Shown: positions 3,392 to 59,600 of the stretch, in pieces
Position numbering within the stretch: the stretch's first letter is position 1
How the letters are laid out: each line of letters opens with the position of its first letter
DNA from: Styela clava
Taxonomy: Eukaryota
Assembly: GCF_964204865.1 (NCBI RefSeq)
Contig: NC_135263.1
Coordinates: 10,230,001 to 10,294,000 of the forward strand
Length of the DNA stretch: 64,000 bases
Reading direction: 5' to 3'
Position numbers and translations under genes: made by a program
Notes under the pieces: model-generated
Database searches by the model: none
Told to the model about the DNA's origin: nothing
Seen by the model: only the letters and a program-made list of their open reading frames with translations

Positions 3392-3732
3392 TATTTGCCG
3401 TTTCCCGATACGCACCATTCTGCAATTTGAACAGTGATTTCTCGGGCCAGAAGTTATCGTGTTATTGCTTTTTTGACACAGATACGGTACAGATGTAAGC
3501 TATGGTACGGTACCGTAAGTTCACTAGTCTAACCTTTAATTGCACAGGCGTTAAACATTTGTGACCTCACGGTACCTACTTCTGTACTTTGCCATCCTGC
3601 CATCGGAAATATCCAGATATATTTTCTATTTCAGTATTTGATAGATCAGGAAACAGGGAAATAATGAAATAAAATATATTTAGCTTTGATGTTCAGATGT
3701 TAGAATAATTAGGTCTGAAGCATTTTGCACAG

Positions 3733-5520: not shown

Positions 5521-5659
5521 AATCTTTCTAATTTGATCCTTTTTATTTTCGTTTTTCAATTCTTTATGATTTAACACTGTGCATTATCGATGTAATAGTC
5601 ACTTATTTATTGGGTGGATACTTTGTGATTTATGTTGAAAAATGTATTTTACAGCTCCT

Positions 5660-6571
5660 ATGCTAGCTATTTGGCAACGTTTTAGAATGGCAAAATTTTA
5701 TGCCGTTTTTCGAGGCCGTAAAGCAGGTGTATACACAACATGGAACGATTGCAAAAAACAAGTTGATGGCTTTAAAGGGTGTATCTACAAAAGTTTTGCT
5801 GGAGAATCTGAAGCTAAGATATTCGCTAAAACTGGAGAAGTTGGATTAGCTGTAAATAAATTAGACAAGCCTTCCAGCTCCAACGTGTCTACAGCTGCTT
5901 GCTCGATAGACTCGAAAATATTGATGGATATTTTTGGAGATCCAAACGATGATGTATATTCCGATGAAGAAGGGCTTACTGTAAAATCAAAATCGGCCAA
6001 AAAAAGGAAATTGGATAGTTCAAAGAAAACCAAACAAGCCAAAGTTTTGAAAATAGATACAGGCTTAACATGCCATGGCTCTAACAAAAAAATTATCAAT
6101 GATATGGCATTCAGCGTTGATGAAAAGTCAAACCCTGTTGTGTACACTGATGGTGCATGTTCCAATAATGGTAAAAAGAAGGCTGTCAGAGCTGGGTATG
6201 GCGTGTGGTGGGGTGAAAATCACCCTCTGAACATTAGTGCCCGGTTGGAGGGAGTACAGACAAATCAAAGGGCAGAAATAGCTGCAGCCAATGCCTGTAT
6301 AAAACAGGCTGTCGATAAAGGACTCAAATCCATAACCATAAGAACTGATTCTATGTTTATAATTAATTGTATAACAAAATGGGTACCTGGTTGGTTAAAG
6401 AAGAAGTGGATCAAAAGTGATGGTAAGCCTGTTGTGCATAAACCGGAATTTATGACAATGCTAACAAATTTGAAAAATGTAGATGTGAAATGGGAGCATG
6501 TTAGAGGACATCAAGGTATCTATGGCAATGAAATGGCAGACAGATTAGCTGTCAGGGGTGCCACAATGTAA
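5660..6571 (+). CDS. RNASEH1: Ribonuclease H1 (hybrid-binding domain + RNase H catalytic domain), single-exon CDS; alternative ATGs at 5660 and 5687
   Basis: N-terminal HBD FYAVFRGRKAGVYTTWNDCKKQVDGFKGCIYKSF. Catalytic motifs VYTDGACSNNG, QTNQRAEI, IRTDS and HVRGHQGIYGNEMADRLA. The ORF-track start at 5642 overlaps the acceptor tattttacag and is probably not used. Confidence 0.95.
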   Translation: MLAIWQRFRMAKFYAVFRGRKAGVYTTWNDCKKQVDGFKGCIYKSFAGESEAKIFAKTGEVGLAVNKLDKPSSSNVSTAACSIDSKILMDIFGDPNDDVYSDEEGLTVKSKSAKKRKLDSSKKTKQAKVLKIDTGLTCHGSNKKIINDMAFSVDEKSNPVVYTDGACSNNGKKKAVRAGYGVWWGENHPLNISARLEGVQTNQRAEIAAANACIKQAVDKGLKSITIRTDSMFIINCITKWVPGWLKKKWIKSDGKPVVHKPEFMTMLTNLKNVDVKWEHVRGHQGIYGNEMADRLAVRGATM

Positions 6572-8815: not shown

Positions 8816-11269
<2,454 letters not shown>

Positions 11270-15078: not shown

Positions 15079-18000
15079 TCATTTGCTATCTTTTGTTTCA
15101 TTCTCATCATCTATGATTTCAATAGCTGTGATAGTTGTGGAGGTTTGATGACCATTCAAGGGAGTTGGTGACGAAGTTCGGCTTGTTGATGCCATATGTT
15201 GTAACAATGCATCTTTTGTTGGAATACGTACAGCGGAACTTTGCCCTGCTGGACGTTCGGTTAGCATGCCACTGCCTATTTGTTTAAAATACTGCATTTG
15301 AAGTTGTTTAAATTGTCTTTGTAAATTTTGAAAAGTAGAAAATTTTTCATTACGTTGAAGCTCTAAACGATAGTTAACTTCAACTGCAATTGCTTTAATA
15401 GTCTCTTCATTAGAATTACTATAAAGGGGAGTCTCTTTAAGATGTTTCATTATGCTTGGGACAGACTTAACTTCACATACTTGGTATTGGTAAAAAGCAT
15501 TGGCAACCATTTTACTCAACCTAGATAGTAAAACGACAGATGATTCACTGTCCATTGGTTTTAGTGAAAAAGAGGATGGCCTTTGAGTATTGGATAAATT
15601 ACTTTGCTGCCTCCAATCTTGAAGTGAGATAGTAGGAGCGTGACCTTTCTTTATCATCTCATACTCTTCCCATGCAGCTTTTCTTTCCTCTTCTGTCAAC
15701 TCCTCATCCACTTGATGATCAAGGAGGGAGTCGTGTTCATGATAAGACGCGACCATGTATTTTGTTCGTGGATCAGAGAGTATATCAGCGAGTACTTCAT
15801 CTTTTGGAACAATTGGCGTCGGTTCATCTTTCCCAATATCGGGAGTTGTAGGATTAAAAGTATACATTTCGGCAAGAGAATTAGCAGTAAAATGTCTGTT
15901 AATCTGCTGCTCATCAACAACTCGAAAAGCAAGAGATTGCTTGTTCACCTGTCTTTGGTAGATTTTTTCTTCCATTGTGCCTTCAGCGATAAGTCTATAG
16001 ATATAGCATTTCCTTGTCTGTCCAAACCTATAAACTCTGAACATGGATTGAGTATCATGAGAAGGATTCCATGAGGCATCAAATATGATAACCCTGTTTG
16101 CACCAACAAGGTTCACTCCAAGACTACCTGCACGTGTGGAAATCAAAAATAATCTAGCCCGTGTGTCACTTTCATTGTTGAATGCATTTATCCACTTTTG
16201 CCGATGGTGGCTTTGTGTTGCGCCATCCATACGAAAGTAATCAAGATTTTTAAACCATGTTCTTTTTGGTAGTTTGTTCAAATTTCCGATATCTGGTTCT
16301 TCCCCTGATTCTGTTCCAATCAGGTTTGCCTTAGGGATTTCCTCAGAATTCAATGTATTTTCAGCAGCTGCATCTGACATCTCGTTTTCAGATTCATCAG
16401 AAGACACAGTTGCTTTCAACATTTCTTCAATCAAATCAAGAGATATCAAACTTTGACTGAAAATAAGAACCTTTTCTTTACGTTCCTCTGATAGTCTTAA
16501 TATTTCAAACAGAATTGCAATTTTCGAACTGTTTTGATAATTTTCCAAGGTATTTTGATCCTCGGGGAGAATCTTAGCATACCATTCAGGCTCCTTCTTT
16601 TCAGACGTTGACTCCAATTCGAGAAACTCAATTTCAGCATCACTTTCAACACAACGCAAACGGTATCGTTGTTTTCTACTTGTGGTAGATCTTGTACGTC
16701 TATCAGGAATTTTTTCTGCGTCACTCTCACTGTCGCTTTCACTTTCTTCATCATCAGAACTGTTGCCAGATTCTGCGTCTTCATCTTTTTCTGTAGAAGC
16801 TTCATCGCTGTCCCATTCATCATTATCTTTTATAACTGCCTTTCTTCTTTTTGACCGTGTTCTTCTCGTTGATATGACCTCTTCTGAACCAGAACTATCA
16901 CCTGAATTATCTTTATCAACGTCATTTAAATTATTAACATTGTTTATTTTATCTTTTTTTGTGTCACTGTCAATATTTTTTTCGCTATTTACAGTCTTGT
17001 TGATTGAATCGTTTTCATTATTTTCATTGGCATTTTTGTCATCTTCGTCAGATGAATTCGACCAATCATCTGTTTCGCTTGCTTCCAGTTCTTCTGCAAT
17101 AAAATCCCATTCAGCTTGGCGGGCCAACATCTTGTCTCTCTGAACTGTGTGTAATAACAAAGATTTTGGATGTGTCCATACTCGCATTAAATTTTGATAA
17201 TCAGCAAACAGTGAGGCTCCTTTACCATAAGAATTAACTATTGTTGTGTTTGATCCTCTATTAGTCATTGTGTCTAAATAATGTTGATAGAGTTTTATCT
17301 GTAAAGGCGTGAGGCGAACTTTAAGTACATATTCAAATTTAGAAGACAAATATGGCTTCAGACATGAATAATCTTTGCGTTGAACAAAACCTTGGAGCAT
17401 TTGATGTAAGACATGCGATCGCTTTTTCATAATTTTAACATCACGATCAGTTGAATCAATATGCTGACCATTTATAATTGGGTTAACGAAACGATTCCTA
17501 AATTCTTTCAGGGAGCCGAGAAGATCGGGTTTAACAAAATCAACCATGCAATGATATTCTATAAGATTGTTTTGCAATGGAGTACCAGTAAGGACCAGCC
17601 TTCTTTTCGTTCTCATTTTACTTATTTGCTTTGAGATATGTGAGGTTGCATTTTTGAGCATGTGACCCTCATCACAAACTACAACATCAGGACCAGGATC
17701 GACCAAGCACTCATGCACAGTCTTTTTCCACCCTGAATACCTGATTTTTGTAGTCATAATTCGATACATGTCGTAACCTAAAATCAAAACACCACCGTTT
17801 TTTCGCCATAACCGTAACATAGAAACTCTTTCTTTATTTGTCTTTGGTTCAGCAAAATTAAAAAGATTTAATTCATCACCATCTTCACACCATTGCACAA
17901 ATTCTGCAATCCAATTCCGCACAGTGTTGAGAGGAGCGACTACCATAGCACACTCAAATGGAACATACTTAGTTTTTAAAAGTGTATGTATTACTGAGAT

Positions 18001-18903
18001 AGTTTGCAGTGTTTTTCCAAGCCCCATGCAATGGGCGAGAATGCACCCACTACCAGAGCCATTTTTCACTCTTTCCGTGCTTTCAACAAGATTGTTCCAT
18101 ATAAACTTTACGCCTTCTACTTGATGTGGGCGTAAATGTTGGGCAATATACTCACTAACTGCAACATGTGGATGTTTTTGCAACATTACTGTAGAAGTAA
18201 GTATCTTTTTCTCAGGCGTTTGTTCAATTTCATCTGGTTCCTCTTCACTTTCAGCCTTTTCAAGTTCTTCGAGTCTTTTTAATCTTTCACGTTCCTCTTT
18301 TGCAGCGTTCCTTGTTTGTTTCTGAAGATCTTTATCCAACAAAATTTTTTTGATTTTCCTTCTTCCTAAATTTCTCTCTTTTTTGGTTTTCTTCTTTTTG
18401 TCACGACATTTTCTTACTTTTGCTTCCACAACCGGTTCTTCATCTGAGTTTGTATCATCTGTATTGGAGTCAGTTTCTATCAAATCATCTTTGATTTTCT
18501 TACTCTTTTTTGAAATGGACGAAGCACTACGCTTACGACTACCATTGTGTGTTTTCTTGTCATCTTTTGAATCAAGTTTTGAGTCGGATTCCTCATCTAT
18601 GTCAGATTCACTCCCACTACTACTAGAAATAATATTAGGATTTGTTATGTTCATTTCGGGTTTCACATTATTTTTGAAAATTTCCCTTTTTCTTCTTTGT
18701 GTTTTTTTCAGAGAAGACAGTGGACTACGATTCTTGGGCGTATCTCCTTTGATTGGAGTTAGAACATCTGGCTCGTTGCTATCTGTGAAAAAAGATGAAT
18801 CATCTTCTGATTCAACATCACTCTCTGGTTCAGCATAATTTATTCGTCCACCTTTTCTATTTTTTGAAGCAGCACGAGAACTACGATATTCGTAGTCACT
18901 CAT
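15079..18903 (-). CDS. ATRX: ATRX-like SNF2 chromatin remodeller lacking the ADD domain, 1274 aa, single-exon CDS
   Basis: ATRX-subfamily motifs GRRKIKKILLDKDLQKQTRNAAKEERERLKRL, GCILAHCMGLGKT, VVCDEGH, RLFLISTRAGSLGVNL, SWNPSHDTQSMFRVYRFGQ and HEHDSLLDHQVDEELTEEERKAAWEEY. An in-frame TGA lies 4 codons upstream of the ATG. Confidence 0.93.
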   Translation of the reverse strand: MSDYEYRSSRAASKNRKGGRINYAEPESDVESEDDSSFFTDSNEPDVLTPIKGDTPKNRSPLSSLKKTQRRKREIFKNNVKPEMNITNPNIISSSSGSESDIDEESDSKLDSKDDKKTHNGSRKRSASSISKKSKKIKDDLIETDSNTDDTNSDEEPVVEAKVRKCRDKKKKTKKERNLGRRKIKKILLDKDLQKQTRNAAKEERERLKRLEELEKAESEEEPDEIEQTPEKKILTSTVMLQKHPHVAVSEYIAQHLRPHQVEGVKFIWNNLVESTERVKNGSGSGCILAHCMGLGKTLQTISVIHTLLKTKYVPFECAMVVAPLNTVRNWIAEFVQWCEDGDELNLFNFAEPKTNKERVSMLRLWRKNGGVLILGYDMYRIMTTKIRYSGWKKTVHECLVDPGPDVVVCDEGHMLKNATSHISKQISKMRTKRRLVLTGTPLQNNLIEYHCMVDFVKPDLLGSLKEFRNRFVNPIINGQHIDSTDRDVKIMKKRSHVLHQMLQGFVQRKDYSCLKPYLSSKFEYVLKVRLTPLQIKLYQHYLDTMTNRGSNTTIVNSYGKGASLFADYQNLMRVWTHPKSLLLHTVQRDKMLARQAEWDFIAEELEASETDDWSNSSDEDDKNANENNENDSINKTVNSEKNIDSDTKKDKINNVNNLNDVDKDNSGDSSGSEEVISTRRTRSKRRKAVIKDNDEWDSDEASTEKDEDAESGNSSDDEESESDSESDAEKIPDRRTRSTTSRKQRYRLRCVESDAEIEFLELESTSEKKEPEWYAKILPEDQNTLENYQNSSKIAILFEILRLSEERKEKVLIFSQSLISLDLIEEMLKATVSSDESENEMSDAAAENTLNSEEIPKANLIGTESGEEPDIGNLNKLPKRTWFKNLDYFRMDGATQSHHRQKWINAFNNESDTRARLFLISTRAGSLGVNLVGANRVIIFDASWNPSHDTQSMFRVYRFGQTRKCYIYRLIAEGTMEEKIYQRQVNKQSLAFRVVDEQQINRHFTANSLAEMYTFNPTTPDIGKDEPTPIVPKDEVLADILSDPRTKYMVASYHEHDSLLDHQVDEELTEEERKAAWEEYEMIKKGHAPTISLQDWRQQSNLSNTQRPSSFSLKPMDSESSVVLLSRLSKMVANAFYQYQVCEVKSVPSIMKHLKETPLYSNSNEETIKAIAVEVNYRLELQRNEKFSTFQNLQRQFKQLQMQYFKQIGSGMLTERPAGQSSAVRIPTKDALLQHMASTSRTSSPTPLNGHQTSTTITAIEIIDDENETKDSK

Positions 18904-19639
18904 GTTGTTGAATCAAGTTGATAGGAAACATTAATTAATCTAACAGACTGCTTTAATACAAATTTTCATTTATATAATTGTATAAAGATCATCCATATTG
19001 AAAGGTAATAGATATTGTAGTATAGTATACCAAAACAGCACCAAATTTGGAGTAAATGACAAGTTCTTCTCCCCCTTTTTATAATACTTTTACAAGAATA
19101 GGAAGGTATGTAAAAGCAGTGATTCAATACAAAGTTCTACATTACATATTATAATTTGGGTCATGTTCAACAGGAACAAATTGAATTCAATTAAACGAGT
19201 GTAACAAGAATTAGAAAATATGTCATTTTGGGCATTTATTATCCAATGATCAGATAAAAATATTTTACTTCATTCAACCTCTGGCATTGTAAATAATAGC
19301 AAATCAAAAAGAAAATGTTAATTCCCACTATCCTATCCGAGTGCACAAACATCAGAACATTGAAACAGAGACAAGATATATATATACCTAATTACTAAAT
19401 TCAATTGTCATGCATGATTCTAATGATTTATGGGCTTGTGTAGTTTCATACCTACTGTTCTTATGGTAGGCGTAGCATAACAACTTTTTTGATTTTTCAA
19501 TCCTAACCCTCATCTGACTTCACCATCCAAAAATTATGTCACTACGACATCACAATCACAGAGCTTGCCAAATACGTACGATCGCCCGAAATGGCATTGG
19601 CGATGAAGATAAAAAACTGACTAACTTCATCAATCTCTC

Positions 19640-25287: not shown

Positions 25288-27047
25288 TTAATTTCCCACG
25301 ATAGAAATAACGCCACCAATGATTGCAAGGGCGAAGGATACCCAAGCAAATACGAAACTATATCCCCAGCTTACGTTAGAAAGAAAAACGGTATCAGCAT
25401 ATAGTCCAGTATAGGAAGCAAGCCCAATCATGATCAAAACACCTAAAAAAAAATAAGAGTGGTGAAATTTTTTAATTTGTGTGCAATAAAAAGTTTAATT
25501 TAAATTGACAGAGAGATATTCCACTGTGTCAAATTGTTGCGGTGGTATTTATTTGGTATGCCGCCATAATTTTTGTATCTCAAATATATGTAACATCTCG
25601 TGTTTACCTCACTCTTATGAGTAATGAAGAAGAAACACTCGGCAGATAATTTCTAGAATACACGGGTATTCTTCATGTAAATGAGATTACGATCAAATAA
25701 AAGTTCAAAGGAGAATTGCTTTATCACAACGGTGTGTCTAAGTGGGCGGGGCATCAGTTTTTGGCTGATGCCTATTCTTTTATGACTCATCGATTATTTT
25801 CGTATGTATTTAACTCTAATTTTCACCATGTCATTATAAACTGACAAGCACTCACGGAGCTATTCGAATGTCACTCACCCTTCATTGATAGTACGAATCT
25901 ATTTATTATGTGATTGGGCGGGGTCGGGCATACAATATAAAAAGGCTCGTTGTAAAAAAGTGTAAACGTATGGTTTTAATTGTTAAACCCTTTGGACAAA
26001 TATAGTATACATTCGATCAAAAGGACAAGAACTATTCGCGTCACTTTATGGAAATTTACATAGTGTGCTTTAGATACGCCAATGACCTTTTTGTACCAGA
26101 AATTTATTTTATATGATATATTTTATCGTTGGGTTGTTTTTAAACAGTTTCAAGTCTGAGACGTTTGGCATCTAAGGCACTTAATATTGTTTATAGCTCA
26201 CGATTTCACCTTTTATTACAATTTAATAACTTGTGAGAGAAACCATGCAGCTACACATTCTTCCACTTATAATTGCACAACTTAAATTTGTGACGAATTG
26301 CTATGTTCTAATCTTATCAAGCACACTTGATACCTCCGAGTAGTGAAAGCACTCCACCAAATGTTCCAAACGCCGATCCTTTCTCTTTTTTCGCCCCACC
26401 GATTAACGCCCCAATTGCTCCACATAAAAGTATGACATCTCCCATTATATTGAATGCAATTGCTACTTTTTCAGCATTTCCCTTTGGTACTGAAAAAGTA
26501 AATATATCATGAAAACTAAATGACATTATGAAGTTTTTGAAACAAAAAATTTGGAATATGTCTAAAAATCCATGATTATTTTTCCGAAATAAACTGTTTT
26601 AAAATATGTAGGCAGCATCTGGAATTTTTTTTTATCTTGAATCTTAAAAACGGAGAAAGCTCTTTTCAAAATTCAGGCGAGTTTTACACAGCAACAGGAC
26701 TTTGCTAATGTGAGGCAATATATTAGGCGAAATTATAAACAATCTTGTGCATTGAAAATATGCCTCTAGACTCGACGTCTGAAAAATGCATGATGCATGA
26801 ACAAAACACACAAAAAGAAATAGTAAATTTGAAGTTTAAAATGTGCATTAACTTACACCGTTCATTTGTCTAAAATTTGAAATTGTGGAAAAAACGTACC
26901 GTTAGCCCAAACACCACCAGAGACAACTTGAAACAATCCCTGAGCAGAAACAGGCGTGTAAATCCATCCTGGTGTTGCTAGTGCTATTAAATTGAAGCAT
27001 AAAGCAAAAAGAAGTCCACCACCACTTCCGAGACGAAGAAATCCCAT
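25288..27047 (-). CDS. PMP22/EMP/claudin-superfamily small tetraspan protein, copy A (intact, 152 aa); exons 27047-26900, 26489-26334, 25442-25288
   Basis: Two phase-1 GT-AG introns give an open 459-nt CDS with four hydrophobic helices, ATPGW..GLF in ECL1 and WGYSFVFAWVSFALAIIGG in TM4. Confidence 0.85.
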
Positions 27048-28239
27048 GTTATTGTTAAAAAGATATTGAAAGTTACAAACAAAAGGTAGGGCAGAATCTG
27101 AAAATCTTCATAATTTTATTTTCATTACTTTGGTTAGAATTTCGAGTTAATGATCACGGCATAAATATTTTTGGATTAGTAACACATGTGCGCAAAATGT
27201 TTATTCAAAAGTTGTCAAAAACAACTAAAAAAGTAAAAATCTTATATTTTAAAGCCAATTTTTATTATTCTCGACTCACGTCTTATTTTGAGTAAGATCT
27301 GACTTTACCAAATTTTTCGACAATTGGAAACCAAAATAGATATCCATCAAGTTCGAAAGCTTTCCGAAAACTGCGATGACAGAGGTTTCTATCGTTTTTT
27401 ATATAATCGATATATTTATCTATAAGTACAATAATTTCTACAATAAAAGACTAAGTTTACTTAAGAGTTATTAGTTTGACAAACATTATATGTCGTTATT
27501 TGATCTGGTTCAATCAAAAATAGAGGTGAGATGTTTCATGAGTGTTTACATAGAATTGACGTGATTGTAAAAAAGACTGTATTACATAGGTCAGATCCAG
27601 AGGTCAATATATCTTATACACGCCCTGAGACTTTTCTCAATCGACGTGAACATCATGGAAGAATTACTTAACGAGTCAACGTGCTTGAAACTTTGAATCG
27701 TCCCTGGCGACGTTTTCACTAATTTGAGAAAATGCTAAATCGATTTGCCCATCTTCATTGGCGTGTTGGCAGCGACTGATGAATAGATGTAAGAGAACAT
27801 AAAAAATAAATCAGTTTTACGTACTTGATCACGTTTTTGGTGGAAGAATGTATTAGAAAGCCCCACTTTTCTAAAAGATCTCCCAAAAATAATCGGATCC
27901 AACATAGCCCAAAAGCAACAACATTCCAACTAGCCTCCAACGAGATATAATAAACGATAAACTAAAAGGAAGCCGTTGAAATCAGCGCTAATTGAATGTA
28001 ACTAACAAGAAGGAACTTTTGTACAATACGCACGTAAATCCGAAACGGAATATCGTACCAATAATGTTGTGTACAGGAAGTACGTTGAACGTTACCATTC
28101 ACGTTCAGCCAGAGACCCTCTTTCTATCCCACACTCTAAAATGAAGTTTGAGGACATGTAGACATGATCACGGGTATAACAAAAATATCATGTCCCACTC
28201 ATATGTATACCTGTGGTATTTAGCCTTTTTTAGCTTAGC

Positions 28240-29983: not shown

Positions 29984-32900
29984 ATGGAGATACCTTTGAT
30001 ATTACCAACTTTATTTGCATTCGGTAAGTTACTAAACATAATGTTTATGTTTTTATTTTATAACATAGTGAATATTTTATAAACTGGATAGTAATAAATA
30101 TGGCCTATAACCAATGTTATTGTATATCTAGCGAATCCGTATATGTATATCTTGTATCCGTCTTTGCACACGCTGTAAGTCATATTAAAGTCATGTATAT
30201 ATATTGATAAATTGAATGTTTATTTGTGAAGATACAACATTCAAGTTGTTTCTGTTTAAAACAAGCTTACACAATTCATAAGTCTTATTCTGAGATTAGG
30301 ACGCGAAATATTCTTTGGGACGGATTTGAAAGACAATTCCGCATTGTGAGCGCTATATAATTTAATGCTTTTCCACAGTTCTTCAACTAATATATCTGCA
30401 TTTTTAGTGTTTTTCGAAATCGTCTGTAGCCAGCAATGTGAAATCCCAAAAGACAGTTTGCAGATCAGACATAGAATTGGTCAACTAAAGCCGAAAAACT
30501 ACCCACAACGTATTTCTGCAAAGCAAAATTGTGTCTGGCAGTTTTCTGACGATATATTTCCAGGACAGGCTTTGTTTATATATGTATCGGGCATTAATTT
30601 GGTTCTCAACAACGAAGCTATCGCAGATATAACAATAGGTAAGACTATTTCTAAATCGAGCCGAACCATTAGAAAATTGAAATATGCATCGGACATTGAT
30701 TTGGTTCGCAACAGCGAAGCTGATGTTGGATGTCAGTACCGAAAATCTGAATTGATCTCTACATAGGACACAAACAGATTCTCGACTTTGATTAAAAGTT
30801 GAGAAAAAAAGAATGAAACTACTACTTAAAAACAACTAATTTGCTAATACCAAGCTGTCTTTAATAGAGCTATCACAGTGCGACAAAATGTCTTTAAACA
30901 TATTTCATATTGTTTCAAATTACAATGTAGTACCGTAGTTACATTACGTTCCGATGTCCGCCATCTTGGTTCGCATACTTCGGGAGCACCCATAATTATA
31001 TAGAATCATAGCATCCTAGCATAACATAATGTTATATTAATACATACGCTTATTTCTCTTCAGGGGAAGAGAATCCATATTACAAAAAGCCGAGAGCGAA
31101 TTGTAGACTTTACGGAAAGAATATCACAGATTTAAATTGGATAAATGTCAACAAGTATTTCATAGAAAACTATGGCAGTAAAGGAAAGAGTTGCAATGCG
31201 TGGGTCGTTGATAGTAGACCTGTTCAAAAAGTAGTTTTTCGATCTTTCGGTGTACAGAATGAAGCTTTCCCCTATACAGATTTCTTGCTGGTTTACGAAT
31301 ATTTACCCGTAGAGAGCATACTCCAGTCTCACACTACAACTTTGAAGGATGAAACCTTTTCTACGCATTTCACCTCATTAGGAATGTCTTCCCCAGGTAA
31401 GGCGTAGCAGTAGCGTACCAAAAAGAACATAATCTTGACAAATCCCATTTTATTGACAAATACAAGAATGTCATAATACGTAGCTTTCCACTTATGTTCA
31501 AATTTCTACATGAAATTCAAAGTTCAGTGTTGGAAAGGGCATTGAGTGGCTGGCTTGACTATGTACTCAAATTCAAAACGCATGCTTCTAATTACCGGTA
31601 TCTATTTTGTAGAAAATATCTCACATTTTGTGACAGAAGACAAACGCTTTCAAATTATTTTCATATTTTGACTGTAGGCTTTTTTCATATATTTGGGGAA
31701 AGATATTTTTCAAATGGGGAGATTTGTATTTCGGACCAAACTGCAATCTATATATTTATAAGAAAAATACCATTACTGTAGTCTACTTTAAGTTAACAGT
31801 TGCACATTTTGGGAATAATGACTTTGATGCAATCATTGTTTAAGGTGTTACAACCAAGGATTACGAAGAAATGACAGACAAAGTACAATGTGGAAACAAC
31901 ACTGCTTACATAGTATTGATTGTAATTCTTGCCCTATGCCTCTTCATAATTGTATCGTATTTCATATATCACATATCAAGGTATTTCATGACCCAATAGT
32001 TTCATTTAACTTACTTACTATAGTGTGATATGATGTGAGTAAAGAAATAATAATATTTTCGTTGTGTCTTTAGAATAACTACAAATGTCTTATATGTTTA
32101 CTGTGTATTCAAATATTGCCTGTTTTGCATACAGACACCGTTCTGCAAGACAAAAAGGTGTTCTTTCGTCAGTTTCCTCACCAAGAATTCACGTTACCGC
32201 TAGTAGCACTGACACGGGTGTAAGAATGGATAACGCACCTGACTCAACAAATCCTAACACTGATATTGTTTTGAGCGGAAATGAGAATCATGCGTAAGTG
32301 AAGCCTGTCAAACTATTACTCGATATATCAACGTCTTTAGCTCTTCGGTTTACCGCCTCATCTTTCGTATCTTTTTCAGATTGGTTAATACTTTTCTGAT
32401 AACCAATCGTTTCGCATAATATAATATTCCTTGGTCAAAACGAGGGTAGTAAAAGTGGAGATTTTGTGAAATTTGAATGAATTTTCGTTTAAATTTCTAC
32501 ATCGTTTTAAACAGATATGCAATGGCAGTAGATCCGTTTGGAATGCCAATCACTTCCAGACCATCCGAAAATATCAACGCGACCTCTACTTATGCAACCA
32601 TAGGTAATACGGTCGCAACTGGAAGTAATTTTCCTATACCAAGGTATTCTAAAGCATTGCTGGAAACTTAGATAACACGCAATATTTTAAAATATATAGC
32701 AATAATTCTTTCCAATGGATATATATATAAACGAAATTTTCAAATTCTGCAGTGCAAAGCGTCATCATTTTGGCCTCTTAGTTTAGTAGCTCGTTTGGTA
32801 AATCCTGTTTGTTGATCGGGATGGGTGAATTAGTAGTTTATCTATTGAAAGATTTTCGATTTGAGATACCGATTTAGAAATTTTACGGCACAAATGTTAA

Positions 32901-33269
32901 TGCAAATCGACAAAACTTAGATTAGAAACCCGTAATAAAATGTCTTTTTGATACCCAGTACTGTGGTGTTTCATTTCTGCAGAAAAGCAGAATTAATTGA
33001 AGTTTACAAACACCGCTTTCACATCAAATATTACATGAAGTCAAAGTGTTTCTGACTTGCTCGTTAAAACTGATCTGTTATTTTTCAGTGACAATGGTCC
33101 GATGTACGACATACCGAGCAACAACCGCGAGAGGGCACCAACAGCTATATCATCAACAAGCAATCCTACAGACCCCTATTACCAAATACCGAGTGGGAGA
33201 ATTCCCGACAAAAATCCTCCAAGTTCAAATGTTAAAGATGTTTATGCCATTGTTCGCAAAGACAAATAG
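29984..33269 (+). CDS. Type I membrane protein, 402 aa: signal peptide, divergent CUB-like ectodomain, S/T-rich stalk, TM, tyrosine-motif-rich tail; exons 29984-30023, 30408-30638, 31064-31396, 31845-31980, 32135-32293, 32515-32643, 33089-33269
   Basis: All six introns are GT-AG with compatible phases (1,1,1,2,2,2) and give an open 1209-nt CDS. CUB-like C..GQLKPKNYP...NCVWQF; TM YIVLIVILALCLFIIVSYFIY; tail motifs STYATI, YDIP, YYQIP and DVYAIV. Confidence 0.8.
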
Positions 33270-34133: not shown

Positions 34134-34321
34134 TAGTAGTATATATTTACGGTCATATATATTCGACCTGGATTTTTTTCGGTAGTTATGTCTTCGAAAT
34201 TATTTACCTCTGTATGTACATATACTCTTGCGTAATCGAACCATATTTAAACGTTTGTCCAACACTATTCATTGCACAACCTTATCCTTGTAGAGTAGTA
34301 TTTTTGTCTAGGAAGTGAATA

Positions 34322-35193
34322 ATGAGCGAAAAAATAAGTTTTTACGAAAACAAAAACCTTGCATACAAGTATGCAGACGGAAGACCATCATATCCACAAT
34401 CATTGGCAAATGATGTGATGAAGTACCGTGCCAATTTAAGACATGATGTGAGTGATCCGAATAAACTAAAATATATATTTGAAAATGCTTGATGTTGTAC
34501 GTTGTAGTGGACATGCAACACGGTTATTTGCTCCGTATTTTGAGTCAAGTTTAGGTATAGATATCAGTTCGGAACAGATCGAAGTTGCAAGGGAACTGAC
34601 AAAGACAAATGATGAAAATGTTTCATATAAAGTTGTGACGAATGATGTGTTCCCCGTTGAAAATGATGCGTAGATTTCGGTAACTGTGCCACAGCTGCTC
34701 ATTGGCTGGATATGCCCAATTTGAAAATGAATGCAATCGGGTCTTAAAACCAAACGGTTGTGTTGCGATTTATACTTACTTTTTTGCGTCAGTCAGACGA
34801 CCTAAATCTACTAAAGCAGCGAACCAAAGTCAATCGGACCTACAATGCCAAAGTCTTATGCGTGATTACATCAGGGATATTCGTGGACATCCAAGAAATA
34901 ATCTTTGGCTCGAAGAATATCGATGGCTTTTTGAGAAAATTTCAAATAAAAGCAAAAGATGGCTCAATGGAATCGAATATGACGTGGAATGGAGTTTTAC
35001 TCAGTTGAGAAAATGTTGGGCAAGCAAAGGGGAATATTATAAACTTTTGAGTGAAGAAAATCCAGAAATCGACCCACTCGACGTATTTTTAAATAATATA
35101 AAACAACTACTGAATATGGAAAATCAGGAAAATGAAGATACCGCGTTTGATATAACGTGGAGATTTCCCTGTATTGTATTTACCAAGGCGTAA
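34322..35193 (+). pseudogene. Intronless class I SAM-dependent methyltransferase (Methyltransf_11-like) with about three frameshifts
   Basis: Consecutive frames encode YADGRPSYPQSL / MLDVVRCSGHATRLFAPYF..GIDISSEQIEVA / CATAAHWLD / FENECNRVLKPNGCVAIYTY. Motif I (LDVGCGxG) is degraded. Confidence 0.75.
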
Positions 35194-38260: not shown

Positions 38261-38822
38261 TGAAAATAAACTAAAAAAACAATATACTGCAAAATCAGTT
38301 TGTGGTGCTTTTCTGTTTAAAAATTAAATTTTGAGACCTCATAAGAGTCATAATATGATGTCATATTCAGTACTTTACACAGGCGAGAAAACCCACTTTT
38401 TTAATTTTTAAAGTGGATTATGACGACATACCACAATTACAAAATTGCGGTAAAAGGCATTTAAAGTTGGTAATAAATCGACTAAACAAATTAAAAGCTC
38501 AAAGCTGCAATGAAAGGTCTTGAAAAAAAGGTGACGTCATAAGACCCGTTTGTAATCGCGAACGGGATCCATGTCCCCGTTCTCCCGAAGTAAGCTAAGT
38601 ACCACTGTGTTTAATAGTTAATATACCCAAAATTCGTAATCATTCGTTTTCATGTTTCACCGAATAAATATCTCATATAATATATGATATCCTTTCATAA
38701 TTAAAGATATACAGATAATATGCGCCACTCATATCTTCCTCTCTTTTATAACTTATTTTTATTTTCCACGACGAGTTAATGCTACTTTATATGATCCCGA
38801 CGATTTTGCATCAGGTTTCGAT

Positions 38823-39909
38823 ATGGCTTCTCACCGTATTTACATTCTAATTGCACTTGTGGTTGGATTGATTTTCAACGTAATTGCATTGGTCACTCCT
38901 GGTTGGATTTACGGAAAACGTATTCAAAAGGCTTGTTCACGATTACATCTGGCAACGCAACTCAGGATGGTGAGTTATCGAATTGCGCTTAACTAATAAC
39001 ATCATTGGAATGTCTGTAAACGTGTTTTCTGATTCCGATATGTACATCTAAGGTTAAATTAATTGTTAACTTGATCGCTTCAAGTTTTGTGACTTTCAAG
39101 TAACCTTCAAGACAAAGTTAACGGTAAACTGAAACTATCCCAGATGCGGAGTTCGTTTACTCCGCGGTTTGCGTATAAATGATTTTGCCACCAATCCAGG
39201 TCGGTTAGGTTAGGTTTGAATGGCATTTTTCACTCCCTTACAGTACAGTTAAATCCAGATAAGTAATCTGTCATTTAAGACTTGAGTCGCTACCGTTCCG
39301 TTAATGTTTTGCCGTTTTCAGTCACTTTTCAATTCTTTATTTCATTCCATTCATTTCAGTGATTAGAGGAAACGCTGAAAAAGTTTGTATTGCCTTCAAC
39401 TTGATGGCAGATGCGATATCAATCTCCGGTATTATAGTCGTTATTACATGTGGTCGTAAAAAGAAAGAAAAAGTTTATGAGAAAGTTGGCGCGGCATTGT
39501 CAATTATTGCGGGTACGGATACTTACTGAAAAATTAAAACATACAAATTTCCTTGCTACGTAAACTTATTCCTTTAATTAATAGGATTTATAAAGTTCAA
39601 ATGTATGGTGCTTTACACGCTTCTTTGTACATGTTCCAGATATATAGCCAAACGAGAGGTCATGGTCCACATTCACCATTTCCCAAAAAAGTATAAATAA
39701 CCAAGTACCGAATATATTTTTATTTTTTTTCAGGCATCTTTATTATAATCGAAATGGCTACTTACACTGGTCTAAACTCTGACAGTATATCGGTCGGAGG
39801 CACCAGTTTAGGATATAGTTTTGTATTTGGATGGATTTCGGCAGCTTTTGCCATTTTCTCGGGAGTTGCTAAATTCGTGAAAGACAGGACCGAGGACTAT
39901 GATTATTAA
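38823..39909 (+). pseudogene. Tetraspan copy B, divergent, 1-nt deletion in exon 1; exons 38823-38969, 39360-39512, 39734-39909
   Basis: Exon 1 is 147 nt against 148 nt in paralogs; the missing base falls in the A-run ggaaaacg at ~38913-38920. Exons 2-3 are open and end in an extended tail FVKDRTEDYDY. The deletion could be a homopolymer assembly error. Confidence 0.7.
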
Positions 39910-44879: not shown

Positions 44880-45996
44880 ATGGGCTTTCTTCGCATTGGC
44901 AGTGGAGGCGGACTTGCGATCGGATTGATTTTCAACGTAATTGCATTGTCAACTCCTGGTTGGATTTACACAAATACATATTCGGTAGGCTTGTTCGCGC
45001 TAAAGACTGGGGACGTAACTACGGATGGTAATTTAATAAAATATTTTAACAAAATTTTAAAATAATTAGGTTTCAAAAATCAAATTCTGCTCTTGATATA
45101 AAAAGGCAAATCGCTATGAGTAAATTGTGACTTGAGTCTGATATATTTCAGTAGCTCTTGCGGTTCAATTTTTTTCTATTCAATTCAGTGATTAAAGGAG
45201 ACGCTGAGAAAGTTTGTATCGCCTTCAACGTGATGGGAGATGTGATATTATTGTGTGGTGCAATAGCTGCTTTGATAGCTGGAGGTAAAGAGGGAAAAGA
45301 AGTTATTGGAAAAGTTGGAGGAGTATTGTCCATTCTTGCAGGTGTGAATACTTTTTATGAGTTTAAATCACTCGAAATTTAGTCCAAATTGACACTACGT
45401 GACGTTATATAAACCAAGCCTGTGTATTCATTATCCAATATCCAAACTAGGACGGATAGGCTTTACATAATCATCCCAGATGAGAGGAGAACCGATGCGA
45501 CGGCGAACCATGGCTTCTCGTCCAAATCAATTACAAATCCATGTCGAGTATGGGGTTAGTTAGCCAGTTATTTGTTTCTGATACATGGACTTGATTGGGG
45601 AGGAAGCCGTAACCGAACAGCGGTTACGTGAACCACCATACGGTGGAGAGAAGTCCTACATCCTCTGTTACATAATTACCCCCACGAGAATTGAATCTGC
45701 GAACCCACGCAGAGGAATCAGAGGTGCGTGGAGAACGTATTCCTAACGCTCAGCACAATGCGGCACACCGCCGAGTCGAGGATGCTCCACATGAAAATAT
45801 GTAAATGAACGAGAAATATAATCTAAACCCATTTTTTTCAGGTATATTCATTATGATCGGAATGGCTACTTACACCGGTTTAAAATCTGGAGTAGTATCG
45901 ATTCCATCCGTCGACTGGGGATATAGTTTTGCATTCGGATGGGTTTCGTTTTGTTTGGCAATTATCGGGGGAATTGTTGCATTTGTTGGAAAATAA
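44880..45996 (+). CDS. Tetraspan copy C (intact, 151 aa); exons 44880-45027, 45189-45341, 45842-45996
   Basis: GT-AG introns at the same positions and phases as copy A give an open 456-nt CDS ending VAFVGK*. Confidence 0.88.
45449..45773 (-). mobile_element. tRNA-derived SINE in intron 2 of tetraspan copy C
   Basis: Inverted homolog of 19640-19935. The 5' end ggcggtgtgccgcattgtgctgagcgttagg is tRNA-like. Confidence 0.7.
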
Positions 45997-50378: not shown

Positions 50379-51572
50379 GATAGAAGGCGGAATAAATTCA
50401 GACTGTTTATTCAATAGTCTTCATAATCTTGACCGTTCACAGTTTTCTAATATCTGATGATTTCATAATCGAATTGATTATTTTTTTTCGAATCGAATCT
50501 TTAATATTTGGAAGATGCGTAATTGCATGTATCTTTTTTATTGTAATGAGTCATATACACACATAAATTACTGAAAATATAGAATCCATCACTCAGTTCA
50601 CAGAGTCAGACATTATCCTCTGCCGAGATTCCTGTTTGCTGTAGATTTCCAATCAATATAAATGAATGAAAAGTTTACAAACGACAAAAATATCCTGAAT
50701 TGTGTGACTAATTTGTGATAGATTTGGCGTGGTTTCACGGGTATTTCGGCAATTTTTTTTTGGTTGTTCGCTGAGACAAACGAATGAGACACAACTATAT
50801 TTTTACTCCCGGATTTAAAAATCGTAATATAGGAAAATAAAAACTAATGTAGCATATATTATTTATGTAAACGGTACTGTTGGATTGCTGTCACAATTTA
50901 AAGAAACCCGACGTGATTTATTCGAAGCGTGAAAGATTTGATTTTAATAGATTGTGAAACACTATTTTACGTTGTCGAAGTTTGAAAAGTTAATGAAATG
51001 TGAAAAAAGTTTCAGATAATGGCTTGTTTTCCTGGAGGTTTGAAAACACTTGGACGGTCTCTGAATCAGAAGCTCATCTCGATCACTATATAATGAGTAG
51101 GCTAGGCGTGTTGATTCCTGCAATGAGCGGTAACGAAACACTTCACTTTCATCAACGAAAAATGCAGTCACGGGGATCTACCCGCGCGTATCGTTGATAA
51201 AGGTATCTCCGTACACGAGCCTTCGTGGTCCGAAACGTATTTATACCCAAAACGCCACCAGTTTCAATGTAAATTAAGTGTTAGAATATACACAGAATCA
51301 GTTTGTTTATTAACTTCCCATATTTTTGCAACCTTACTTAAAGAGGTATCATGGTAATACGCCATGTACAAAAGCCTCAAATTTTAGCGTTTCATCTTTA
51401 TGTTTTTTGCCCAACTATGATAGCAAATGTCCTTTTATTATCAAATGCGAATTACTAATATATATTTTGCTCTTCTTTTTATTTTCCCCCACACAATAAT
51501 TCTGCTCGATTTTCCCGATCCAAAGTTTATTTTAATTTAGCTGTCAACTAATAGGTAGCACCAGGTATCACT

Positions 51573-52932
51573 ATGGGTTTACTTCGCATTGGCACTGGAG
51601 GCGGGCTTGTGATTGCAATGATTTTCAACGTAGTTGCATTGGCAACTCCTGGTTGGATCTACACAACTTCGTTTTCCGTAGGCTTGTTCAAGAGGAAAGT
51701 TGGTGACGCAACTCTGGATGGTAAATTATCAAATTGCGATTACATACATAATGATATTGAATTTCTTTCGGATTCCGAAATGCATATTCCTAGTAAAAGT
51801 ATTGATAAAATACCTCACATCTTTTTGACAAATTGTTCAGTAGTTTTGAGTGAAAGTTACGGGTCTCATGCCGGAATCTTCGCCGATGCAGAGTGATTCA
51901 CATGACCGCAGTTCCATTGCGAATTCTTTCATCAAACACCTACATGCATACTGGAAATTCATAAATAAATTTCGAAAATCAAACTTTACTCTCAATTTAA
52001 ATCAAAATTATAATTCAGCTAGTTTTACTTTTTTGAGTTTCATATTGTTATATTTATTCCAGTGAATCGAGGAGACGCTGAAAAAGTTTGTATCGCTTTC
52101 AACGTGATGGGAGATGCGATATTGCTGTGTGGTGCTATAGCTGCTTTGATAGCTGGCCGTGAAGAAGGAAAAGAAGTTATTGGAAAAGTTGGGGCGGCAT
52201 TATCGTTGTTGCAGGTATTTTGGAATTATTATTCAGATTTATCGATTCGTGCTAATGCTACTATTTTTCTGAAAACTGATGGATATACGAGAGAATTTCT
52301 CACGACCGTACAGTGATGAAAGTCCTTTTTATACTTGTCGTTTTATCAATCAAATCCACGTATGTAGAAATCGACTGGCCACCTGCTTTATTATGCAGCG
52401 CCAAGGCGTGCAGTCAAAGGAAACGTTATACCCCTTACCACATCCCTAACATGTAAACGAAAATATCGCTCAGAGACCGAAGACTTATCGACCGAAAGTT
52501 AGGGGATCCCCAAAACAGCGCTCTTACTCCATAGTGACACCCTGTGTCCCATCACTAATTAATTAATAACTCGCTAATTATACGACATAATTCGTCCAAA
52601 ATCAATAGGCTTCTGGTCCGAGATAAGATGAATGCACACGCAAAATCTTGAGCAGATCTCGCTTTCGTGAGATATCGCGTGCATCTAACAGACATACAGA
52701 CTGACAAATACCTATCAACATACTTACTGATTAAAATCGATAAGTAATAAGCAATAACATTTTAACTCTTCTATCAGGCATCTTCATTATGATTGGAATG
52801 GCTACCTACACCGGCCTATATTCTGAAGTCGTGTCTGTTCCAAACGTCACCTGGGGATATAGCTTTGCATTTGGATGGATTTCGTTTTGTCTCGCAATTA
52901 TCGGGGGAGTTGTTGCATTTGTTGGAAAATAA
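51573..52932 (+). pseudogene. Tetraspan copy D, 1-nt deletion at the end of exon 2; exons 51573-51720, 52063-52214, 52778-52932
   Basis: Exon 2 is 152 nt against 153 nt in copies B and C (tcg-ttgttgcag vs attgttgcag in fragment E). Splicing to exon 3 gives GCA TCT TCA TTA TGA. Exon 3 is fully open in the ancestral frame. Confidence 0.75.
52456..52745 (+). mobile_element. HINE/DINE-1-like element, family 1, in intron 2 of copy D
   Basis: It is absent from the paralogous intron at ~54911-54923 (atgta|aataagc), so it inserted into an A/T run without a TSD. It has the subTIR and 3' hairpin. Confidence 0.8.
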
Positions 52933-56403: not shown

Positions 56404-56652
56404 TGTTAAACGTATTTCTGGCAACTAGCATTTTCCCAGATGGTTGAGCTTGACCTTTGATGTCATCAGTTTCAGGTGACTGATCATGACCAACCATCTG
56501 TGAAGGTGAGTTGGCCATGTGCACTCAGTAGTCTGGGGCACAGCTCAGTTGGTGTTGCTTATATCTGTACGTGTTATTTTGGTTATTGCTTGGGACATTT
56601 ATTGCTGTTTGATCAAAACATTTATTAAATATACTTTGGAGTCACTTTAACA
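56404..56652 (+). repeat. 5' LTR
   Basis: tgttaaacgt...cactttaaca; about 11 differences from the 3' LTR by manual alignment. Confidence 0.95.
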
Positions 56653-56654
56653 AA

Positions 56655-56669
56655 TGGTAGCAGAGGATG
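56655..56669 (+). promoter_or_regulatory. Primer-binding site for initiator tRNA-Met
   Basis: TGGTAGCAGAGGATG is complementary to the 3' end of animal tRNA-iMet and lies 2 nt after the 5' LTR. Confidence 0.9.
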
Positions 56670-59600
56670 TGCAATGACTTCTCAAGGATACAAGAATTCT
56701 CCTTTGTTGACGGGAGAGAAGCCATACGATCAATGGAAGAATGAGATCTCTATGTGGAGTTTAATCACAGACCTTGACAAGAAAAAGCAAGCTTTAGCAG
56801 TTACATTGAGCTTATGTGGAAAAGCTAGAGAAGTTGCTCTAGAAATAAGCTCCGATGAATTGAACAGAGATGATAAAATGCAAACATTACTTGTAAAATT
56901 AGATGGTGTCTTTGAAAGAGAGACTTCTGATAGAACTTATGAAACATACACCAAATTTGAAAATTTAGTAAGACTAGAAAATGAAAACATCAGAGATTAC
57001 TTATCAAGACTCAACATAGTGAACACAAAAATGAGAGAATTTGGCATGGAGTTACCGGACACTGTAATGGCGTGTAAACTACTCATTGCTTTAAAAGAAA
57101 AACAATTGGTTCTTGCAGCAGTGGACAAGTTAGAATATAAGTCTATGAGTTCGGCACTGAAAAGAATATTTGGTGAAAGATCTTCGTCGTCTCCTGTTGA
57201 AGTGAAACAAGAGATGGCATATTTTTCGAAAAAAGTTGGTAAATTCCGACAAGATCATGGCAGGCGAGCAGTTACAAATCCAGAGAAGGGATGAGAAAAG
57301 ATGGTTCTATCAGTCAATGTGCCATTTGTGGATCTACTTATCATTGGGTAAGGAATTGTTCTAGAAATTCAAAATATTCCAGAGCAAGATGTCAGATTTG
57401 CGATTCAAGGATGCATTCTGAAAATTCCTGTCCACATCAAGATCGAAAATTAAATCATTTTTCAGAAGGAAGCAATGGGATGTCTGTTGTTAATGACATG
57501 GATGTGTTCACCAAAGATCTATGTGGATATGCAATATTAGATTCTGGGTGTACTCGCACTGTATGTGGGAAAATTTGGCTTCTTGATTATTTACAAAGAA
57601 TTAGGGAATCTGAAATAGAAAAGATTCACACTGAAGATAGTGGAGGGGTTCTCAGGTTTGGTGATGGTCGAAAAGTCAATTCGTTGTACTCCATGGAAAT
57701 CCCGGGATACATTGGGGACACTAAAGTCACCATTTCTTGTGACGTGGTTGATGAAAATATACCATTATTATTGAGTAAAGATTCCATGAGAAGATCAAAC
57801 ACTGTGATTGACTTTGCAGACAACAGAGTGGAAATGTTTCATAAACCAGTTAAAACTCTGTGGAGAATAAGAAGTATTACTGTGTCAGCCTTTTTCCCAA
57901 TGACAATAAATCACCTACTCGAAGGATTTTTATCACTGCAAATGAAAGCAGGGATGTTTTTTCTGAAAAAGATCTTTTCTTTTAAAGTTGCATCGACAAT
58001 TTGGTCACGCTTCCTATGAGCGATCATCAAAACTTATCAATAATTCAGGAAAACTCAACCAGTTATCTTCAAATATGTTAAGAAGGTTATAGACAATTGT
58101 CAAGTTTGCAAAACTTACAAGAAAACTTCTCCAAAACCGGGTGTTGAGTTGCCACGTGCAACTGATTTCAACGAGGTTATAGCCATAGATCTTCATCAGC
58201 TTGGCCCAAATTTATGGTACATGAATACTATCGACATGTTCACCAGGTTTAGTTCTGAATCGATTATTAGTTCCAAGTCCTCATTGGTCATAGCAAGTGA
58301 ATTTTTGTCACATTGGATTAGCATATACGGACCTCCGAGGCAGGTATTCACAGACAGGAGAATTCAACAATGCAGTTTTTCGTGACATGGCTGAAAATTT
58401 CAACATAGAACTCAAGACGAGTGCAGCGGAAAGTCCACGGAGCAATGGCTTAGTCGAGAGGCATAATTCTATTCTAACTGAAATTTTGCTGAAAATTAGA
58501 GATTCTGAATCATTAGATTGGAAAACAGCATTTTCCTGGTCTCTAAATGCAAAGAATTCATTGCATAATGTTCATGGTTACAGCCCTTATCAGCTAGTAT
58601 TTGGAAGGAATCCCAATCTTCCATCTTTGCTAACAAACAAACCTCCTTCGTTGGATGGCACTTCTGTGAGTGATGTGGTTGCTTCTCATCTCAATGCCCT
58701 GTATGCTTCGAGAAAAGCCTTTCTTGAATCAGAGTGTAGTGAACGAATTCGAAGAGCTTTGCAAAAACAAATCAGGTCTCATGGCGATGAAATTTGTGAG
58801 ACCGGAGACACTGTTTATTACAAGCGAGAGAATTCAGAAAAATGGCGAGGCCCGGCAAAAGTTATTGGTGCTGATGGATGTGTGATATTCCTTAGGCATG
58901 GCGGACTGGTTATACGTGTACATAAATGCAGGCTGATGCATGATAAACAAGTTAAAGTTGAACAGGGTGATGAACAGATATCAGGTGATGAATCACAACC
59001 AAAAGTAGAAGAGATGCTTTATGATGAAGATGACGAGGAAGATTTAAAACAGACTGATCAAGGAAATGAATCTTTGGTATATAATGGTGGACCTTCGCCT
59101 TCACCTGTTGTGAAGAAAGATCCTAAACGTGGTCAAATAGTAGAATTCAAAGATGATGTAACTGGTAATAAAAAAGATGCAAAAGTACTTGGACGGGCTG
59201 GTAAGGCAACAGGAAAATACAGTAAGTAGCTGGTATAATATTGAGTATTTGCAACCTTCATCTGAAAAAGGCACAAAGTCATCCATTGATCTTGACACTG
59301 TTAAGAATCTATCTATTATGAATGATTTAACAGCTGAGGAAATACCAATTGTTGATCAAGTGATGTTGATTAACGAAGACCTCTTTCTTGAAGCAAAGAT
59401 GAAGGAACTGGACAGCTGGAAACAAAACGAAGTCTACACATAGGAAGAAAATAAAGGCCAGAAGTTGTTAAGTACAAGTTGGGTATGTTCAATAAAAAAG
59501 ACTGACGATGGACCAAAACCAAAGGCTAGACTAGTAGTTAGAGGTTTTGACGAGGATTGTCTCAATGAATTAAAAACGGATTCCCCAACATGTTCTAAAG

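Follow-up and report, generated by a model that had tools for sequence, protein, structure and literature searches.

A single-copy Styela clava gene for a CUB-like membrane protein with a conserved tyrosine tail, and its possible place in a family of ascidian CUB receptors

What does an ascidian membrane protein do when its outer part resembles a CUB domain and its inner part carries tyrosine motifs of immunoreceptor style? The question is raised by Styela clava LOC120341436, annotated in RefSeq as "uncharacterised", which lies within a window of 64,000 nucleotides (the whole stretch of DNA analysed; assembly GCF_964204865.1, contig NC_135263.1, positions 10,230,001 to 10,294,000). A sequence-only reading of this window had proposed an orphan CUB-like receptor of inhibitory or adaptor type. 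Here we address the gene model, the outer domain, the tail, the wider gene family and the allele variation. Our reading, held with slightly more confidence than doubt, is that LOC120341436 encodes a CUB-type receptor with a conserved tyrosine tail, which would be phosphorylated by Src-family kinases and act as an inhibitory or adaptor receptor through SHP2/Csk and Crk.

The gene is real, spliced and single-copy, and codes for a type I membrane protein. Seven exons join into an open reading frame of 402 amino acids with GT-AG introns in phases 1,1,1,2,2,2, which reproduces the phase-consistent model first proposed, including the phase-2 introns of the tail (the last three). The features are listed here in window coordinates.

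Exon 1, 29984..30023, + strand: start codon and first part of the predicted signal peptide, phase 1; junction present in runs X1 and X5.
Exon 2, 30408..30638, + strand: end of the signal peptide and first CUB-like half (C24, C55); Pfam CUB match and contig junctions.
High-copy short repeat, 30944..31010, no strand assigned: in intron 2, outside the mRNA.
Exon 3, 31064..31396, + strand: second CUB-like half (C104, C134; to ~31308; allele-variable) and S/T-rich stalk.
Exon 4, 31845..31980, + strand: juxtamembrane Cys217 (31889-31891) and transmembrane (TM) helix (~31904-31975); ends in phase 2.
Exon 5, 32135..32293, + strand: membrane-proximal tail without tyrosine; symmetric, phase 2-2.
Exon 6, 32515..32643, + strand: tail with STYATI (32585-32602); symmetric, phase 2-2; absent from RefSeq isoform X2.
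Exon 7, 33089..33269, + strand: MYDIP (33102-33116), YYQIP (33177-33191), DVYAIV (33237-33254) and stop codon.

Junction support was the check proposed for this model, and all six junctions are present in spliced contigs—six of six in runs X1 and X5 (two studies), five in X2 and four in X6. Where a shorter stretch was compared, run X3 shows four of four junctions and runs X7 and X8 two each; run X10 crosses that stretch unspliced and without differences, and so may be source DNA. The RNA nature of the runs is a guess rather than a matter of record, and they carry no tissue label; the contigs are nonetheless spliced. The topology agrees with the signal peptide, TM helix and tail of ~155 residues that had been claimed: we find a hydrophobic N-terminus, a TM segment at ~222-245 and a tail of 157 residues. 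The repeat at 30944-31010 represents one end of a high-copy element, the only end evident within intron 2; at other places the copies form inverted pairs ~200 bases apart (MITE-like).

RefSeq departs from this model in two respects. Its protein XP_039265875.2, otherwise identical to the model, starts at an in-frame ATG further upstream and is longer by 37 N-terminal residues; we disfavour this extension because it would bury the signal peptide, because the records P0004 and P0010 begin near the Met of the 402-residue model (P0004, from a second allele, begins at exon 1), and because one low-depth contig has a 2-base deletion inside it. RefSeq isoform X2 lacks exon 6; this skipping form was not seen in the seven spliced runs, whose contigs drop rare forms.

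The outer domain resembles a CUB in every test, and in every test it falls below the firm threshold. Pfam CUB (PF00431) matches exon 2 with E 0.013 and 16.2 bits, and the whole protein with 13.9 bits, under the gathering cut-off of 21.4 bits that seven of eight proteins from a related cluster on C6 (described below) exceed; Pfam gives no Ig, sushi, LCCL or discoidin match in the ectodomain of ~200 residues or elsewhere in the protein. For the Atlas model of P0004, all ten rows are CUB proteins, with TM values of 0.56-0.60 that lie below the Atlas naming bar. AlphaFold2 with a 49-row alignment predicts a beta-sandwich into which a helix is inserted, at a block pLDDT of 46-85 across residues 31-180; the input alignment is shifted by several residues at about 83-101, and confidence there is low. 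When no alignment was supplied, the prediction contained no usable domain (mean pLDDT 36.9). With the alignment-based model the top Foldseek rows are nearly all CUB, the best at E 0.059 and none below 0.001. The top VIA match is a spermadhesin (Z 5.5, rmsd 3.7, 102 aligned residues), followed by other CUBs at Z 4.8-5.2; PliG and a collagen-binding domain, both sandwiches of non-CUB type, reach Z 5.2-5.3 and are effectively tied with the top match. Taken together, the spermadhesin and CUB structures (PDB 1spp, 4gz9, 6fzw, 7tl6) align over ~100-107 residues at Z 5.0-5.5 and rmsd 3.3-4.0; LOC120341436 differs from them in its 7-14% identity, its ~150 residues with an inserted helix and its membrane anchor.

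The mature domain holds four cysteines (24, 55, 104, 134), the first two of which align with the first pair of the CUB-receptor family. The canonical CUB profile aligns with ~30 residues only, and calcium ligands are not readable from so short a match. We judge on these models that the ectodomain is in all likelihood a divergent CUB, though not proven to be one.

All five tyrosine motifs named for the tail—AYAM, STYATI, MYDIP, YYQIP and DVYAIVRK—are found there. PMC8631942 gives the ITIM consensus as S/I/V/LxYxxI/V/L, with Ala preferred at pY+1, and has ITIMs recruiting SHP1/2; PMC6029619 describes YxxP motifs that bind CRK/CRKL in DCBLD1/2, and PMC12582321 the core-2 motif [A/D]VYxxV of Botryllus FcoR. 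Chance yields several of these patterns readily: in shuffled tails the ITIM consensus occurs in 22-26%, two YxxP motifs in 12.5%, both together in 1.9%, and the fit of DVYAIV to [A/D]VYxxV in 0.4%. The motifs are thus near chance singly, and the case that they matter rests on conservation.

Evidence for conservation comes from one partial homologue. A sensitive search among 1.84 billion proteins returned five matches (P0004, P0007, P0008, P0010 and P0009), and a profile search of the protein database gave no homologue beyond P0004 and P0007. P0007, P0008 and P0010 are fragments that align sensibly with LOC120341436; P0009 was set aside as repetitive and likely a chance match. P0007 spans half of the CUB, the stalk, the TM segment and the tail with 24% overall identity; its sole match in the S. 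clava genome is LOC120341436, of which it is likely an orthologue. The two tails align with a local score of 126, against 29.8 +/- 5.0 and a maximum of 61 in 2000 shuffles, and the identity is piled on four motifs: STYATI/SSYASI, MYDIPTNNR/MYDVPTNNR, YQIP/YQAP and the shared VKDVYAIV (LOC120341436 first). Four of the five named motifs are therefore kept, with MYD[IV]PTNNR the best conserved stretch, and AYAM is missing from the P0007 tail in this alignment. Also common to both proteins is the cysteine just outside the membrane (Cys217).

The description of STYATI as an ITIM survives in its loose form: the S-type consensus is present, in a single copy, and kept, and Y326, like Y395, has Ala at +1, but the strict form I/L/VxYxxI/L/V is absent from the LOC120341436 tail and the loose one is the consensus so common in shuffles. 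P0007 additionally has a strict ITIM, IPYASV. No ITAM is present in the LOC120341436 tail, where DVYAIV is a single [A/D]VYxxV copy. The candidate partners exist, in that the S. clava genome holds SHP2-, Csk-, Crk/CrkL- and Syk/ZAP-70-like genes.

Is the gene an orphan? It is single-copy, and the paralogue search that had been suggested found no close relative in the genome, for the tail exon either; but it did reach a distant family, and two trees join the gene to ~30 other genes of CUB-stalk-TM type. The weakest genome match (E 0.8) leads to another CUB-stalk-TM gene, whose own CUB exon matches 39 places, and ~30 other CUB first-half exons were mapped in the genome stretches examined. Because the automatic gene predictor skipped real exons, including in LOC120341436, cluster counts were taken from exon profiles. 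The main cluster (C6, 20,218,000-20,411,000) comprises 21 CUB-receptor units, interleaved: nine ITIM-type, ten ITAM-like and two unassigned. The ITIM-type units carry IMYSAL/I (seven of nine) and a terminal [DE]MYS[AV]V[VI]RK (nine of nine). The ITAM-like units have YEEV-type tails, with V-tolerant ITAM spacing in nine of ten and Glu within six of eight complete TM segments; the V-tolerant form occurs twice each in P0027, P0033 and P0035 (in 0.02% of shuffles for P0027), and the strict form Yxx[LI]x6-9Yxx[LI] in none of ten proteins tested. Eight RefSeq proteins, all annotated "uncharacterised", confirm the cluster gene builds. Some units look incomplete, with no TM found for three and a stop inside one CUB exon.

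A tree of 27 joined CUB domains, with nine ITIM-type and seven ITAM-like units (three ITAM-like units without paired halves were left out), places seven ITIM-type and four ITAM-like units in one clade (96/97), where cross-class identity is 63-73%; neither tail class is monophyletic in 200 bootstrap trees. Judged from its sequences, the arrangement of the cluster is a paired-receptor pattern. A search with the cluster CUB halves brought eight more S. clava proteins and general CUB proteins, with no named protein from another tunicate (a word-index search, and weak). A rough scan of ten other CUB-bearing stretches brought up no convincing exon for a TM segment or a tyrosine tail.

Further family members were observed at C6 19.82-19.89 Mb, 20.06 Mb and 23.38 Mb, C5 9.253-9.262 and 5.18-5.24 Mb, and C17 3.08 Mb; tails among them include VAYSTV with repeated NVLYG, ~18 repeats with a TYSTV-type motif, and YEEI/YENL/DPYLQP. 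Arrays of canonical CUB genes, some of them very long single ORFs, lie at C3 15.71-15.81 Mb, C2 24.06-24.11 Mb and C19 9.35-9.39 Mb.

LOC120341436 and the cluster genes share the same overall build and the same exon phases up to the TM segment. In a tree with non-ascidian CUBs, LOC120341436 and its homologues fall on the side of the cluster family, against canonical CUBs (99/99), and in a tree of 17 S. clava and eight other CUBs (first 82 residues, mixture model) the gene again groups with the cluster family (96/97); its branch in these trees is very long and the bootstraps are unsettled. Profile scores and hhalign did not demonstrate the kinship (24 bits against the cluster profile, where unrelated S. 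clava CUBs score 17-36), the tail is no more like the cluster tails than chance would allow, and distal-tail introns are in phase 1 in the main cluster and phase 2 in LOC120341436. On balance the trees make it likely that the gene is akin to the C6-type CUB-receptor family, probably as an old, divergent member.

Allele variation adds a further line of evidence, based mainly on one protein record. P0004, an older record, differs from the window allele at 24 of 402 residues: one of 69 in the first CUB half, ten of 82 in the second, four of 49 in the stalk and four of 157 in the tail. The second CUB half stands out against the rest of the gene (Fisher p 0.006, for a region picked post hoc), and differences cluster at residues 96-98, 128-129 and 158-165. 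A frameshift artefact was ruled out, as 22 of the 24 changes need one base and two need two. Among neighbouring genes, the GON4L-like protein differs at 14 of 595 residues and ATRX at six of 1274, and RNase H1 and VCP seem identical between alleles, as inferred from shared records. Most runs have the exon 3 of the window allele, and in six of the seven spliced ones its CUB part, as far as it is covered, has few amino acid changes or none, so that only about two allele classes are evident; run X8 has five differences in 78 bases of exon 3, which would fit the second allele type. The contrast in the outer domain is compatible with a role in recognition.

We propose the following mechanism for an inhibitory or adaptor receptor. 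Ligand binding would cluster the receptor, possibly as a dimer linked by a Cys217 disulfide and held out on a stalk of glycosylated type, and a Src-family kinase would then phosphorylate the tail. Csk docks on terminal motifs similar to DVYAIV; pY326 (STYATI) and pY395 (DVYAIV) would recruit SHP2 and/or Csk and signalling would be damped, while pY349 (YDIP) and pY374 (YQIP) would recruit Crk-type adaptors and provide a link to adhesion or motility. Splicing out exon 6 would delete the ITIM and modulate the output. The likeliest setting may be a recognition task of blood cells or epithelia, a placement we hold at about even odds. The reading drawn from the bare sequence escapes all three of the outcomes named as its refutation: it keeps its junctions, its likeness to CUB (below firm thresholds) and four of its five motifs. 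It gives up AYAM, any ITIM stricter than the loose form and probably the label of orphan.

Three other readings must be considered. CDCP1 is a vertebrate CUB-containing type I membrane protein with a YxxP-type docking tail and no enzyme domain, and LOC120341436 might likewise be a non-immune scaffolding co-receptor of DCBLD/CDCP1 type, at work in development, adhesion or migration, with dominant Crk sites and SHP2 acting positively. The gene is single-copy, conserved and unexpanded, and its best conserved stretch contains a YxxP site, a combination of CUB with YxxP-CRKL docking also described for DCBLD1/2 in PMC6029619; but LCCL and discoidin domains are lacking, allele variation is focused in the outer domain, and the trees join the gene to a family with ITIM/ITAM-like pairs, which leaves this reading possible but rather doubtful. 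An activating receptor, whose terminal DVYAIV would serve as a hemITAM-like site and recruit Syk upon dimerisation, is improbable. DVYAIV does resemble the FcoR hemITAM and hemITAM-like motifs EDDVYAIL, PDDVYAIL and ADDVYAIL, and an FcoR with the core-2 motif is the partner of the activating receptor uncle fester (both from PMC12582321); the juxtamembrane cysteine is conserved and a Syk/ZAP-70-like gene is present. Against these, the acidic run is absent (VKDVY in both homologues), the motif ends in V, the tail has no ITAM, and the similar terminal motif of the C6 cluster marks its ITIM-type class throughout. More improbable still is a role in gamete or blood-cell allorecognition, in which the protein would mark self and non-self through allele-specific binding by its CUB domain. 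The clustered allele differences and the top structural match to a spermadhesin would speak for this, but other CUBs match about equally well, no more than about two allele classes can be made out, with six of seven spliced runs near-invariant in the exon 3 CUB part, and the neighbours are claudin-like and housekeeping genes.

The surroundings of the gene can be described briefly. A claudin/PMP22-like array (assigned from weak Pfam matches below the cut-off) flanks it on both sides, at 26300-27100 (-) and at 38700-39000, 45150-45380 and 51550-52320 (+). Directly downstream, at 34300-35190 (+), is a gene that by eye resembles one for a small methyltransferase, though the tested frame has no Pfam match, and 56629-60787 (+) holds the coding region of a Copia-type LTR retrotransposon in several frames (RVT_2 match). 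GON4-like, RNase H1, VCP/p97-like and ATRX-like genes lie together at 3709-6571, 8816-11269 and 15079-18912, each as one uninterrupted ORF, and the Syk/ZAP-70-like gene elsewhere in the genome (L095) is likewise one long ORF; genes of these types are intron-rich in most animals.

As an inhibitory or adaptor receptor, LOC120341436 would be modest by itself; it is the CUB-receptor family that would surprise comparative immunologists. Ig and lectin domains are known to serve as scaffolds for paired on/off receptors, and vertebrate paired receptors include KIR, LILR, Ly49, SIRP and CD200R. It is tempting, if more speculative than not, to see in S. clava a system of paired immunoreceptors that uses the CUB fold, made up of the ~21-unit cluster with LOC120341436 as an old inhibitory member whose ligand-binding half would be under balancing selection. 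[quoted passage not shown] For cell recognition in a solitary ascidian, the gene and the cluster offer specific candidates; LOC120341436 is the easiest entry point, since it is single-copy and expressed, its motifs are conserved and its two alleles can be told apart. In the open-access literature searched, no paper came up that describes ITIM- or ITAM-tailed CUB receptors from ascidians; there is an older survey of Ciona immune genes, and Halocynthia A74 is reportedly an ITAM protein.

Among known systems, the nearest within ascidians is Botryllus schlosseri FcoR, as presented in PMC12582321: type I receptors with a non-enzymatic tail, ITIM-like and [A/D]VYxxV motifs, and motif exchange by splicing, a feature echoed here by the RefSeq isoform without the ITIM exon. 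FcoR genes also form a clustered multigene family in which inhibitory and activating receptors occur, comparable with the ITIM-type and ITAM-like members of the S. clava family. Its ectodomain, unlike that of LOC120341436, has three Ig-like domains and one sushi domain; its core-2 motifs come in pairs 29-33 residues apart, where DVYAIV is a single copy; and its genes are paired with fester genes, where the neighbours of LOC120341436 are claudin-like or housekeeping (judged from the listed ORFs and from Pfam matches for 12 selected frames, so that short exons could be missed). The main text of that paper makes no mention of CUB domains or Styela. DCBLD1 and DCBLD2, vertebrate non-immune CUB receptors with YxxP tails, are likewise type I membrane proteins without an enzyme domain, whose YxxP sites serve CRK/CRKL after Src/Abl phosphorylation (PMC6029619), and on this point of likeness the two YxxP motifs of LOC120341436 are conserved (YDIP/YDVP and YQIP/YQAP in LOC120341436/P0007). 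They differ in having LCCL and discoidin domains and in not being a paired family, while LOC120341436 combines a single divergent CUB-like domain with two YxxP sites and with ITIM-like sites. By its sequence, then, LOC120341436 is a receptor of ITIM/adaptor type, distinct from FcoR (no Ig, sushi) and from DCBLD (no LCCL, discoidin). Vertebrate paired receptors have look-alike partners, and LOC120341436 itself has none. The C6 cluster, like those receptors and like Hydractinia Alr (PMC9546547), interleaves ITIM-type with ITAM-like members, and the cross-class identity of ectodomains in its main clade (63-73%) fits that pattern. It differs in that its activating-type motif lies in the receptor's own tail, with V at one L/I position, in that the ITAM-like TM segments hold Glu (six of eight complete) rather than Lys/Arg, and in that recognition is built on CUB in place of Ig or C-type lectin.
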